This document shows, piece after piece, positions 4,916 to 38,827 of a stretch of 64,000 nucleotides of DNA (its first letter is position 1; each line of letters begins with the position of its first letter). The position numbers and the translations under genes were made by a program. The notes under the pieces were generated by a model, which saw only the letters and a program-made list of their open reading frames with translations, did no database searches and was not told where the DNA came from. This DNA is from a phage, in assembly GCA_026209155.1 (NCBI GenBank), contig GCA_026209155.1_3056.1, one strand, 5' to 3'.

Positions 4916-5931
4916 CATTATGTTCAGATAAGGTCGTTAATCTTACCCCGGAATTATATCCAGCTGCATGTCACCATGCAGATCAGACTATATCTCCAAC
5001 TTGTTAAAGCAAGTTGTCTATCGTTTCGAGTCACTTGACCCTACTCCCCAAAGGGATAGTCGTTAGGCATTTATGTAGAACCAATTCCATTTATCAGATT
5101 TTACACGATAAGTAACTAATCCAGACGAAATTTTAAAATGTCTAGCTGCATCTGCTGCACAATCAAAAATAACCCCATCACATGAAATCTTTTTAATATT
5201 ACTAGGCTTTTTACCTTTCATCTTTTCTGATATTTTAGATTTAGTTATGTCTGAATGCTTATGATTAAAGAATGAATTATTTTCACCTGAACGATTTCTG
5301 CATTTACTACAAGTATAAGCAGAAGTTTGTATGCGAACACCGCACTTACAAAACTTATGGGTTTCTGGATTCCAACGCCCGTTTTTACTTCCGGGTTTAC
5401 TGTAAAGAGCTTTCCGACCATCAGGTCCAAGTTTAAGCATCTTAGCTTTAACAGTTTCAGAACGTTTCTTAATAATTTCTTCTTTTAATGGATGCGTAGA
5501 ACATGTATCACCAAACGTTGCATCAGCAATATTGTATCCATTAATTTTAGAATTAAGCTCTTTAATCCAAAAATTTTCTCGTTCAATAATCAAATCTTTC
5601 TCATATGGAATTTCTTCCAAAATAGAACATTCAAACACATTACCATGTTTGTTAAAAGACCTCTGAAGCTTTATAGAAGAATGGCATCCTTTTTCTAAAT
5701 CTTTAAAATGCCTCTTCCATCTCTTTTCAAAATCTTTAGCACTTCCTACATATACTTTATTGTTTAAAGTATTTTTAATCTGATAAATTCCGCTTTTCAT
5801 AAATACCTCTTTAAATATAGAAGTATTTATTAAAGGGCAGTCCTACAATTTAGCACGGGATTGTCTACTAGAGAGGTTCCCCGTTTAGATAGATTACAAG
5901 TATAAGTCACCTTATACTCAGGCCTCAATTA
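4916..5931 (-). mobile_element. Group I self-splicing intron in td (1016 nt) carrying the I-TevI gene
   Basis: Exon 1 ends ...CTTGGGT; intron begins TAATTGAGGCCTGAGTATAAGG (minus strand), ends ...AATG before exon 2 CTTCCATTTAAT; matches remembered T4 td intron ends and length. Confidence 0.9.
5063..5800 (-). CDS. Intron-encoded GIY-YIG homing endonuclease I-TevI (245 aa)
   Basis: N-terminal GIYQIKNTLNNKVYVGSAKDFEKRWKRH GIY-YIG motif; NUMOD3-like and Zn-finger region (CKCGVRIQTSAYTCSKC); lies inside the td intron. Confidence 0.92.
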   Translation of the reverse strand: MKSGIYQIKNTLNNKVYVGSAKDFEKRWKRHFKDLEKGCHSSIKLQRSFNKHGNVFECSILEEIPYEKDLIIERENFWIKELNSKINGYNIADATFGDTCSTHPLKEEIIKKRSETVKAKMLKLGPDGRKALYSKPGSKNGRWNPETHKFCKCGVRIQTSAYTCSKCRNRSGENNSFFNHKHSDITKSKISEKMKGKKPSNIKKISCDGVIFDCAADAARHFKISSGLVTYRVKSDKWNWFYINA

Positions 5932-34711: not shown

Positions 34712-34745
34712 TAATTATACCACATCCTTGTGGTAAAGTAAACTA
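34712..34745 (-). promoter_or_regulatory. T4-type early promoter (-35 GTTTAC, 17 nt, -10 GTATAAT) overlapping the gene 39 stop
   Basis: Minus-strand GTTTACTTTACCACAAGGATGTGGTATAAT. Confidence 0.55.
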
Positions 34746-36563
34746 TTGGCTCATCCATTCTTTACGAAGGTCAGCATTATCTCCCATGAGCATTTCAAAA
34801 AGCTCTTTCCAGTTCTCAGGAAGTTTAACAACATCATATACTGGGTTTTGAATCATCTCACGATATTCAGATTTTTCCAAAGAGCCAAGTCCTTTAATAT
34901 AACGGATGCTATGTTTAGGTAGAGCATCTTTGGCACTCTCATATTCAGCGACTGTATAAAACCATTCTTGTTTTTTACCGACCTGAGCGATGATTACAGG
35001 AGTTTTGACAAAGCGAATTCTTCCTTGTTCAAACAATTCTGGCCAATTACTAAAAAATCCGAGCAGAGAAGGATAAATGCTTCCTAGACCATCATGGTCA
35101 GCATCAGTCATAATAGCAATATTATGATAATTCAAGTTTTCAGCCTTTTCACCAAGAACTAATCCAGTGATTGCACAAATATCGAACAGTTCTTTGTTTT
35201 TAAGCATATCAGCATATGACATGCCCCAACTGTTAAGAACTTTACCACGCAATGGATAACCACCATGAAGTTCTTTATCACGAACATCAATAAGATATCC
35301 GATAGCAGAATCACCCTCAGTCAAGAAAAGAGTAGTATCAGCATCTTTACCGCAAAGATTCGCTTTGATATGTTTATGAACCTTAGCTTTAGAAGCCTTT
35401 TTAGCTGCTTTAGTTTCTGCTGCTTTTTCTGCCGCCAATTTACGAGCCAAAGCAGCTTCAATAATCGGCATTAGAATTGCTTCATTATTTAGAATAGCGC
35501 GTGAAATCTTTTTAGCATCAAGCTGAATATGACTACGAATTTCGCCAAATGGAGAAGTCAAACGCTCTTTAGTTTGAGAATCAAATCGCATGTTTTTCAT
35601 ATCACGAACAAACATAACGATAGTCAAACATTCTTTAACACGTGCTTTAGTTACATCAATTTTGAACTTACGTTTGATTTGTGGAATAAGGTCTTCACAA
35701 ATATCATCCATAACGCAGTCAATGTGATGGCCACCATTCTTAGTATGAATGTTATTGACGTATGTTAATTGACGAAAACCATCCGGTGAACGACCAACCG
35801 CAATAGAACAATTTTCTTGTTCTTGAACAATAGCATGTTCATCATATTGGCGTGCATATTTCTTAAAATTACCCTGAACCTTTTTACCATTAAAGGTAAA
35901 TTGAATATCAGGATAAACTACTGCAAGTGTCTGGAGACGATCTAGCGTAATGTCAAGATAAACTTGAGATAGTTCATTAGTTTCAAATGACATAAAATCA
36001 GGAATGAAAGTAACACGAGTTCCTTTCCATTTTCCAGGAATAGTTTCCCATGATTTATTTTCCATGCCATTTGAACAACGAACTACAATATTATTTTGAC
36101 CATCGCCAGTTTCACCGACAAACATCACAGAAAAAATGTTAGTTAAACTAGAGCCAACACCGTTCATACCGCCAGTGACGCGTTCTTTATCATCACCAAA
36201 GTTACCACCTGCTTTTGGAATAGTCCAGGCAGCAACAGGACCAGGAATTTCTTCACCAGTAGGTGTTTTAACCATCGCTTGTGGAATACCACGACCGTTA
36301 TCTTCAACTGTTACTTGATTGTTTTTGATAGTAACATTAATTTTATTTGCGAATTTAAACTTAGTACGAATACCTTCATCTACTGAGTTATCGATAATTT
36401 CATCAATAAGCTTAACAAGACCAGGTACATACTGAACACTTTCCCATTTACCAAACAGAAAGCGCTCATGCATTTCATTAGCGGAAGAGCCAATGTACAT
36501 GCCGCTACGCTTTTTGATATGTTCAATATCGCTCAGAATTTTAATTTCATTCTTAATCATCAC
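34743..36563 (-). CDS. 39: DNA topoisomerase II large subunit gp39, uninterrupted (GyrB-like ATPase plus Toprim region that is gene 60 in T4)
   Basis: 606-aa continuous ORF; C-terminal IAIMTDADHDGLGSIYPSLLGFFSNWPELFEQGRIRF segment is contiguous. Confidence 0.9.
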   Translation of the reverse strand: MMIKNEIKILSDIEHIKKRSGMYIGSSANEMHERFLFGKWESVQYVPGLVKLIDEIIDNSVDEGIRTKFKFANKINVTIKNNQVTVEDNGRGIPQAMVKTPTGEEIPGPVAAWTIPKAGGNFGDDKERVTGGMNGVGSSLTNIFSVMFVGETGDGQNNIVVRCSNGMENKSWETIPGKWKGTRVTFIPDFMSFETNELSQVYLDITLDRLQTLAVVYPDIQFTFNGKKVQGNFKKYARQYDEHAIVQEQENCSIAVGRSPDGFRQLTYVNNIHTKNGGHHIDCVMDDICEDLIPQIKRKFKIDVTKARVKECLTIVMFVRDMKNMRFDSQTKERLTSPFGEIRSHIQLDAKKISRAILNNEAILMPIIEAALARKLAAEKAAETKAAKKASKAKVHKHIKANLCGKDADTTLFLTEGDSAIGYLIDVRDKELHGGYPLRGKVLNSWGMSYADMLKNKELFDICAITGLVLGEKAENLNYHNIAIMTDADHDGLGSIYPSLLGFFSNWPELFEQGRIRFVKTPVIIAQVGKKQEWFYTVAEYESAKDALPKHSIRYIKGLGSLEKSEYREMIQNPVYDVVKLPENWKELFEMLMGDNADLRKEWMSQ

Positions 36564-36629: not shown

Positions 36630-36902
36630 TTATTTAAAACGGATAGTCGAATCCTTGAAGAATAGACCAGAACACACGGTTCCTTCTACTTTCTGCCCAG
36701 TAGGTCCAATAGCACGAAATCCAGTATGCTGGAAATCATTTTCAGAGCAACCGAACCAATTATATCCAGTGATTTCAATATTAGTAAAACCACTTGAAGA
36801 CAAAACTTTGGTTGCATTATCGGCATCAGTACATCCTACTAAAGATACTGCTAATACTAATGCCGCGATAGAACGATTAACATATTTCATAATTTCACTC
36901 AA
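36630..36902 (-). CDS. Putative lipoprotein (signal peptide plus lipobox LVGC)
   Basis: 90-aa ORF, N-terminus MSEIMKYVNRSIAALVLAVSLVGCTDADN; followed by UUCG hairpin. Confidence 0.55.
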   Translation of the reverse strand: MSEIMKYVNRSIAALVLAVSLVGCTDADNATKVLSSSGFTNIEITGYNWFGCSENDFQHTGFRAIGPTGQKVEGTVCSGLFFKDSTIRFK

Positions 36903-37272
36903 ATTTAATGGCTTGAAGAAGACTAATAATTCTCAAGCGACTTCTTTCATCTTTAACTGTAAAAGAAAGAGGGTCACCAGATTTCATAGTGATGGTGCAT
37001 CCAAAATCAAAATCTTCTGTAACTTCTTCGAATAGGTCAAATTCTTCATCATAAATTAGAACATTACTCTGAAAACTGTGAAGAATTTTTCCATCATTTC
37101 CAGATGCTGTACTAATCACTGTAACATTATTACCTTTCATATCTTCAACGATAAATTCGCTTGTAGATATTACATTACTAATAGAACCATTCCTATAAAT
37201 AGCAGAAAATAGATATTTCTTTTCTTCACCTTCGCGAATGCGATATTTCTTACCGATTTTAAACATAATCAC
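36895..37272 (-). CDS. Hypothetical protein (39.x-like); start may be GTG or the third-codon ATG
   Basis: 125-aa ORF. Confidence 0.5.
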   Translation of the reverse strand: MIMFKIGKKYRIREGEEKKYLFSAIYRNGSISNVISTSEFIVEDMKGNNVTVISTASGNDGKILHSFQSNVLIYDEEFDLFEEVTEDFDFGCTITMKSGDPLSFTVKDERSRLRIISLLQAIKFE

Positions 37273-37445
37273 CCTTTAAGTAAGTCGTAAAAACCGCCAT
37301 TTACATGCTTAGGAGCAGAAGGCCGACGAGTAGACAAACGATGACATTTAGGGCAAACATCATTTTCTCGTTCAGAAATCTTTTTAATTTTTTCATATTC
37401 ATGCCCACAATCTTCGGATTGGCATTTATAATCATACATTGGCAT
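37269..37445 (-). CDS. Small zinc-ribbon protein, FmdB-like (58 aa), not in ORF track
   Basis: Hand-translated MPMYDYKCQSEDCGHEYEKIKKISERENDVCPKCHRLSTRRPSAPKHVNGGFYDLLKG; two CxxC pairs. Confidence 0.5.
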   Translation of the reverse strand: MPMYDYKCQSEDCGHEYEKIKKISERENDVCPKCHRLSTRRPSAPKHVNGGFYDLLKG

Positions 37446-37447
37446 AA

Positions 37448-37867
37448 TTATTCCTTAAAATGTGCTTTCAACATCTGATACAAAGACCATGCATGTTCAT
37501 TATTTTCAATAGTAACTTTCATTACCGGGAATTCTGTGAAATCTTCTATTTGTTCTTGCTCTTCCTGCTCTTGTTCTTCAGCAGCCTGATATGGATTTTC
37601 AACTTCATCAAAGAACCCAGCTTCACTTTTTGAAAGCCAAATAAAGTCTTCATCCAAAACATCTTTATCAGGAGATAGTACTAAATTTCCAGTAGATGAC
37701 AAAATTTTAATAGGACGCCCAAGAGCGTCCACATCTAAAATTTTAAAAGGATACATACCTAAACGGCGCGCATAAATTCCGTTATTAATATGGTCTTTAA
37801 TAAAATTTTCTTGAGCTTGTTTATTTTTAAATTGATACCATTTATTAACTTCAAATCTAATAGCCAT
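37448..37867 (-). CDS. Hypothetical protein with acidic [10 protein letters not shown] segment (possibly goF-like)
   Basis: 139-aa ORF. Confidence 0.5.
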
Positions 37868-38751: not shown

Positions 38752-38827
38752 AGTTATCTCTCACTTGTTAAAAAGATTTTATACTCCACAGGACCATTAT
38801 ACTCTGGTCCCAAGAGTTTGTAAACTA

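Follow-up and report, generated by a model that had tools for sequence, protein, structure and literature searches.

The 64,000-nt stretch of phage DNA analysed here (the window) carries at 37269..37445, on the minus strand, a gene for a 58-residue protein which is the syntenic orthologue of gene 39.2 (NwgI) of phage T4. It is a genuine protein-coding gene under purifying selection, and its product is a member of the FmdB-type zinc-ribbon family (PF09723/TIGR02605). By analogy with T4, we regard it as probable that the role of T4 39.2 is shared by the window gene, the zinc ribbon presenting a short conserved tail that acts on the chaperonin GroEL. Gene, family and function are already on record and the finding is in this respect ordinary; the juxtaposition of NwgI, of the mycobacterial protein Ruc and of a zinc ribbon-Cpn10 gene pair in jumbo phages is the only mildly new element.

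Gene locus and neighbourhood

According to the ORF list and the sequence itself, the coding sequence comprises an ATG start, 58 codons and a TGA stop, and its translation is MPMYDYKCQSEDCGHEYEKIKKISERENDVCPKCHRLSTRRPSAPKHVNGGFYDLLKG. The initial annotation had proposed a 58-residue ORF at exactly this position and quoted the same peptide, and both are reproduced here on the minus strand. Its placement upstream of gene 39 is true in the direction of transcription: gene 39, encoding the T4-type topoisomerase II large subunit of 606 aa, lies at 34743..36563 on the minus strand. This gene 39 is unsplit, the 606 aa being read from a single ORF, whereas T4 divides the protein between gp39 and gp60, which are separated by mobA and a 50-nt translational bypass.

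The upstream neighbour of 39.2 is the orthologue of goF (comC-alpha; 37448..37867, minus, 139 aa; phrog_622, 3.3e-36), a gene that also adjoins 39.2 in the T4 annotation. Downstream follows a goF-family paralogue of 123 aa (36895..37266, minus; phrog_622, 1.2e-27), so that 39.2 is flanked by two goF-family genes in this phage. Next to the paralogue lies the 39.1 orthologue (36630..36890, minus), whose product begins with the lipoprotein-like signal MKYVNRSIAALVLAVSLVGC… (…AVSLVGC). In the T4 reference, 39.1 is listed with 65 aa and without this N-terminus (L002 3399..3596); the re-sequenced T4 genome T4T has the full 86 aa with the sequence LIGC (L144 900..1160).

The three genes are tightly packed. 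The stop codon TAA of goF (37450-37448) is followed by two nucleotides (TT) and the ATG of 39.2 at 37445; likewise, the stop codon TGA of 39.2 (37271-37269) is separated by two nucleotides (TT) from the ATG of the goF paralogue at 37266. The gene had been described as wedged between two ORFs with its start and stop overlapping them. The neighbours do abut, but the overlaps are absent at the annotated ATG starts, which are those of the near-identical phage IME340. A 4-nt GTGA overlap with the downstream ORF arises only with a mechanical GTG start at 37272, which IME340 does not use.

Six nucleotides 5′ of the 39.2 ATG, within the 3′ end of goF, we found the Shine-Dalgarno-like element AAGGA (37452..37456, minus). 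The minus-strand sequence that carries it, TTTAAGGAATAATTATGCC, is invariant in four aligned phages, and the element is predicted to function as the Shine-Dalgarno sequence of 39.2. Because of the 2-nt gaps and of a Shine-Dalgarno element inside the upstream gene, 39.2 is probably co-translated with its neighbouring genes. Two further ORFs overlap 39.2, one in another frame (37301..37435, minus) and one in antisense (37305..37478, plus); they were taken as shadows of the conserved frame.

The scan for promoters and terminators returned 23 promoter-like sites compared with a shuffled expectation of 21.8, which is not above chance, and only the site upstream of motB looks meaningful. This is the best sigma-70-like site of the region (38796..38824, minus; TTTACA-17-TATAAT, 11/12), located just upstream of motB. 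Judged by its sequence, it could be the start of an early transcript that covers cef, goF and 39.2. Rfam and tRNA scans of the whole 64,000-nt window gave no matches.

Coding evidence and family membership

The length of the ORF is uninformative, since the same AT-rich 4 kb contain dozens of ORFs of 30-60 aa, and a chance ORF with a cysteine pattern that encodes no protein would look similar in this respect. The profile searches argue against such a chance occurrence. The translated ORF matches PF09723 (Zn_ribbon_8) over residues 1-41 with 45.7 bits at a cut-off of 34.4 (E = 6.7e-12), and the NCBIfam entry TIGR02605 (FmdB family zinc ribbon protein; CxxC_CxxC_SSSS) with 44.9 bits at a cut-off of 31.3 (E = 8.7e-12), both thresholds being the curated cut-offs of the families (in Pfam the gathering score). 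A further match was obtained to phrog_1076 (7e-12). The FmdB zinc-ribbon assignment, for which the initial annotation had suggested an HMM search, is therefore right.

The conservation of the frame points in the same direction. Among eleven distinct orthologous DNA sequences, pairwise dN/dS is 0.02-0.13 (pN 0.01-0.13), with synonymous sites near saturation (pS 0.4-0.75). In all of some 30 distinct protein variants the frame is unbroken and starts with MPxYxYxC; these come from Straboviridae genera including Tequatrovirus, Tegunavirus and Krischvirus, from Certrevirus and from jumbo phages. Conservation in T4-like genomes, the other check that had been proposed, was found by tblastn, where the 39.2 ORF matches 886 phage records, 216 of them at 99% identity or more and with a tail down to about 37%, the T4 orthologue being 39.2. 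When 1.84 billion representatives were searched exhaustively with phmmer, 155 proteins reached E <= 1e-3, which are short, FmdB-like, almost all 50-130 aa long and unnamed; a word-indexed protein search returned 7 near-identical proteins only. With HMM E-values of about 1e-11, dN/dS of at most 0.13 at near-saturated synonymous change, a frame kept from T4-like phages to jumbo phages, a Shine-Dalgarno element at the right distance and a phenotype of the T4 39.2 deletion that is published, as far as the summarising source goes (PMC5153855), the interpretation as a chance ORF is excluded for all practical purposes.

Orthology to T4 gene 39.2

Over the 1.8 kb around 39.2, the identity is 98% to phage vB_EcoM_IME340 and 90-98% to hundreds of Tequatrovirus genomes. 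In IME340 the identical 58-aa protein is YP_010066641, annotated as 'FmdB-like transcriptional regulator', and other public records label the gene '39.2'. The gene had been presented as unlisted, which implied that it was overlooked; in fact it is T4 gene 39.2 and annotated in many public records of relatives.

T4 gp39.2, as encoded in the re-sequenced T4T, has the same length of 58 aa, and 47 of the 58 residues are identical to the window protein (81%; 108 bits, no gaps). All four zinc ligands and the last 16 residues are the same, whereas the 11 substitutions are found in the loop of the first knuckle and in the linker residues 38-42. The gene order in T4 is motB, cef, goF, 39.2, 39.1 and 39. 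This order is kept in the window on the same strand, with one extra gene, the goF paralogue, between 39.2 and 39.1. The paralogue is annotated in IME340 and UTI-E2 and absent between 39.2 and 39.1 in T4 and T4T. In Yersinia phage TG1, the 39.2 homologue is separated from the topoisomerase gene by a gene for a GIY-YIG homing endonuclease (L004 2377..3060). The intergenic spot between 39.2 and the topoisomerase gene appears to be an insertion hot spot, occupied by the goF paralogue here, by 39.1 in T4 and by the endonuclease in TG1.

The T4 reference NC_000866.4 lists 39.2 as only 45 aa. There, a one-base insertion (GCTTCC compared with GC-TCC in three aligned relatives) leads to a premature stop in 39.2. 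At least ten other T4 records contain a version of this 221-nt stretch (record 5639..5859; L002 3640..3860) which is 96.4% identical to that of NC_000866.4 and 2 nt shorter. Translated in T4T, the shorter version gives the 58-aa gp39.2, and the product has 57-58 aa in T4T and in the relatives examined. Georgopoulos is likewise cited as describing the T4 39.2 product as a 58-residue peptide, in the part of the source available (PMC5153855). Because of the insertion in NC_000866.4 and the 58-aa product in T4T, we ascribe the 45-aa annotation to errors of the old sequence.

Anatomy of the protein

The structure was modelled by AlphaFold2 from a 23-sequence alignment of diverse homologues. Residues 1-40 (37326..37445, minus), which correspond to the PF09723 and TIGR02605 matches (residues 1-41), form four short strands at a pLDDT of 87-90, consistent with a zinc ribbon. 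Residues 41-58 (37272..37325, minus) have a pLDDT of 51-59 and are predicted to be flexible. All of the 23 aligned homologues have M1 and C34, and each of P2, Y4, Y6, C8, C31 and G51 is conserved in at least 90% of them.

The protein starts with MPMYDYKC, the spacer between C13 and C31 is 17 residues long, and the second knuckle reads CPKC. The initial annotation had recognised the pattern MPxYxYxCxxCG...CPxC. Of this, the second knuckle (C31-PK-C34) stands, but the first knuckle is C8-QSED-C13, a C-x4-C followed by G. In the first knuckle, identity and spacing of the second ligand vary by lineage: C-x4-C is found in T4-type phages, in TG1 and in most jumbo-phage proteins, whereas Certrevirus and XaC1 have CxxC and Krischvirus has C-x2-H. 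Judging from the conservation of the ligands and from the modelled ribbon, one zinc ion would be bound by C8, C13, C31 and C34, with the predicted ligand codons, read from the sequence, at 37422-37424, 37407-37409, 37353-37355 and 37344-37346 (minus).

The tail, predicted to be disordered, contains a conserved motif. T4T and UTI-E2 share SAPKHVNGGFYDLLKG with the window protein, from which neither of them differs over the last 16 residues. A Mosigvirus-type locus (L012) keeps SAPKHVNGGFYDLLK, with only synonymous changes in those tail codons. Bacterial members of the family have a related G-(S/G)-G-(F/W)-Y element behind the ribbon. The conserved sequence of a tail predicted to be disordered suggests a docking motif.

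The comparison with known structures gave no specific relative. A profile search of PDB sequences returned only spurious matches to C2H2 fingers and ribosomal zinc ribbons, and Foldseek against the PDB reached E = 0.28 at best, all matches being generic zinc ribbons (for example MCM, aRF1 and Rpb12).

A zinc ribbon-Cpn10 gene pair in jumbo phages

In jumbo phages of the RaK2/121Q/GAP32/Eneladusvirus/XaC1 type (345-383 kb), a 39.2-like PF09723 protein of 66-69 aa is encoded 0-30 nt upstream of a gene for Cpn10/GroES. The pairing was seen in 17/17 loci inspected (L007 2001..2494, L008 2001..2517, L145 696..1182, L146 687..1194 and L051-L063), counted as distinct after some had been retrieved twice under different ids, and it is kept even where the identity of Cpn10 is 56-63%. 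A reverse search starting from Cpn10 led essentially to one jumbo-phage clade; it matched 83 phage records, a few of them weakly and outside this clade. Because the loci form one related clade, the pairing amounts to about one evolutionary association, maintained over a long time.

As a side observation, the zinc-ribbon gene of Klebsiella phage fENko-Kae01 is preceded by a gene for a phosphoesterase of 525 aa, with LAGLIDADG_3 inside the Metallophos domain (L007 413..1990). The phosphoesterase of the Yersinia and Xanthomonas relatives has 204 aa. By its domain composition, the fENko-Kae01 gene looks like one with an intein or a homing-endonuclease insertion.

Proposed role at the host chaperonin GroEL

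The GroEL mechanism comes to us through secondary summaries of a single study. As summarised there, Ang & Georgopoulos (2012, Genetics 190:989) identified gp39.2/NwgI as a modulator of host GroEL, and a T4 39.2 deletion is reported to be unable to grow at all on particular groEL mutants (PMC5153855, PMC4396842). According to these summaries, gp39.2 would act on host GroEL and shift it to an open state able to bind the co-chaperonin, that is host GroES or phage gp31. This shift would help the chaperonin-dependent folding of phage proteins; growth would not depend on 39.2 in wild-type hosts but would require it in certain groEL mutants. In such a mechanism, the conserved tail may be the element in contact with GroEL. 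Since eleven residues differ from T4 gp39.2, functional equivalence of the window protein is something that we infer. A point against the GroEL role is that no chaperonin gene adjoins 39.2 in the window, the neighbours being goF-family genes. The jumbo-phage pairing and the membership of Ruc in the family would fit a role in protein folding.

The initial annotation had spoken of a regulatory zinc ribbon. This word reflects the historical FmdB family name only, and the sole functional study of the orthologous group reports, as far as its summaries go, GroEL modulation (PMC5153855, PMC4396842). The more specific idea of a transcriptional regulator that binds DNA or the host RNA polymerase early in infection is carried by the product name in RefSeq phage records and by the PHROG category. 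T4 early regions encode several small RNA-polymerase-binding proteins, and RbpA, a zinc-ribbon-like protein that binds RNA polymerase, is among the highest-ranking, though non-significant, Foldseek neighbours (E = 0.5-0.7); both points speak for a regulator. However, the label descends from the family name, which in turn comes from an uncharacterised 'putative regulatory protein FmdB', and our literature search found no paper showing regulation by any FmdB family member. Pfam detects no DNA-binding domain in the protein, the Foldseek matches, RbpA included, all lie at E >= 0.28 among generic zinc ribbons, and both experimentally studied members, Ruc and, according to its summaries, T4 NwgI, act in protein folding. 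A role in transcription is very unlikely on this evidence.

In a second alternative, 39.2 would encode a free-standing holdase of the Ruc type. Upon oxidation it would release zinc, take up unfolded clients and pass these on to chaperones of the host, without being specific for GroEL. Ruc (Rv0991c) of M. tuberculosis, which is annotated as FmdB family (PMC13407613), combines a zinc ribbon of the form CxxC-N17-CxxC at its N-terminus with a disordered C-terminus; one zinc ion is bound, and oxidation turns the protein into a chaperone (Becker et al. 2020, PMC7448276). Its gene is co-regulated with hsp60 and hsp70, the protein works with the Hsp70 system, and ruc-family genes adjoin chaperone genes including groES/groEL in several phyla (PMC7448276). 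The Ruc paper does not mention phages (PMC7448276). To compare the families, orthologues were collected with an Rv0991c sequence as query; M. tuberculosis is not among the 80 loci kept, and the Pfam test was carried out on the orthologues of M. celatum and Mycobacterium sp. Marseille-P9652. These match PF09723 with 56.5 bits and have the 17-residue spacer in common with the window protein. The shared Pfam domain and knuckle spacing, the same succession of zinc ribbon and disordered tail with a G-(S/G)-G-F-Y element after the ribbon, and the requirement of the disordered tail for Ruc activity (PMC7448276) would all be expected of a phage-encoded holdase. On the other hand, Ruc-family tails are variable, hydrophilic and 7 to 61 residues long (PMC7448276), whereas the tail of the window protein has 18 strictly conserved residues and looks like a docking motif. 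The identity to Ruc is 35% over 34 residues only, the first knuckle differs (C-x4-C), and the T4 genetics, as far as they are summarised, point specifically to groEL alleles (PMC5153855). We consider a free-standing holdase rather unlikely, though the idea is compatible with an action on GroEL, and the two are not mutually exclusive.

Returning to an action on GroEL as the preferred interpretation, a wider picture can be sketched tentatively, and we hold it to be possible at best. The 39.2-type proteins may represent the Ruc/FmdB chaperone family in a minimal, phage-borne form and assist the GroEL/co-chaperonin machine as accessory subunits, with the invariant tail (…NGGFYDLL) docking on GroEL, and the zinc ribbon-Cpn10 pair of jumbo phages may be the same module arranged as an operon. 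The sequence NGGFYDLL bears a loose likeness to the GG-hydrophobic core in the mobile loop of GroES; both this likeness and the docking of the tail on GroEL are speculation. No prior linking of NwgI, Ruc and the jumbo-phage zinc ribbon-GroES pair was found in our literature search.

With respect to annotation, '39.2 / NwgI-like GroEL modulator, FmdB(Ruc)-family zinc ribbon' would be preferable to 'transcriptional regulator' or 'hypothetical'. Since two experimental PF09723 members belong to protein folding and jumbo phages couple such a gene to GroES, we suggest that the label 'FmdB regulatory protein' may be misleading for the whole family. The value of the present analysis is modest, as it puts existing pieces together. 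The conserved GGFY tail nevertheless offers a testable handle on how a 58-residue protein could influence a chaperonin of about 800 kDa.

Comparison with related zinc-ribbon proteins

Compared with the FmdB family as defined by PF09723 and TIGR02605, the window protein has in common the MPxYxYxC start, the 17-residue distance between the knuckles and, behind the ribbon, a G-G-aromatic element. It differs in the first knuckle, where the CxxC of the family is replaced by C-x4-C through a 2-residue insertion, and in the tail, which is short and conserved and not serine-rich.

The zinc ribbons of the jumbo phages (PF09723, 39.3 bits) start with MPLYTYxC, have mostly a C-x4-C first knuckle and share with gp39.2 a segment of the type EKIVKIxxR(D/E). 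Their bit scores are 38-47 with the window protein and 20-32 with Ruc. The resemblance to the window protein is found mainly in residues 1-35; the tail is a different one (F-x-F/Y-K/R-G-N-W-F), and the genes lie directly upstream of a phage GroES gene, unlike the window gene.

Ruc has the same Pfam domain and, like the window protein, a zinc-binding N-terminal ribbon in front of a disordered C-terminus. The Ruc orthologues are, however, 102-120 aa long and carry long Ser/Ala-rich tails, in contrast to the 18 residues of the window protein. Ruc is an oxidation-activated holdase of the Hsp70 system, whereas gp39.2 is reported, in the summaries at hand, to act on GroEL. Linkage to chaperone genes, finally, is not seen in the window, where the neighbours of 39.2 are goF-family genes, but it is seen for ruc and, in the form of Cpn10, for the jumbo-phage homologues.
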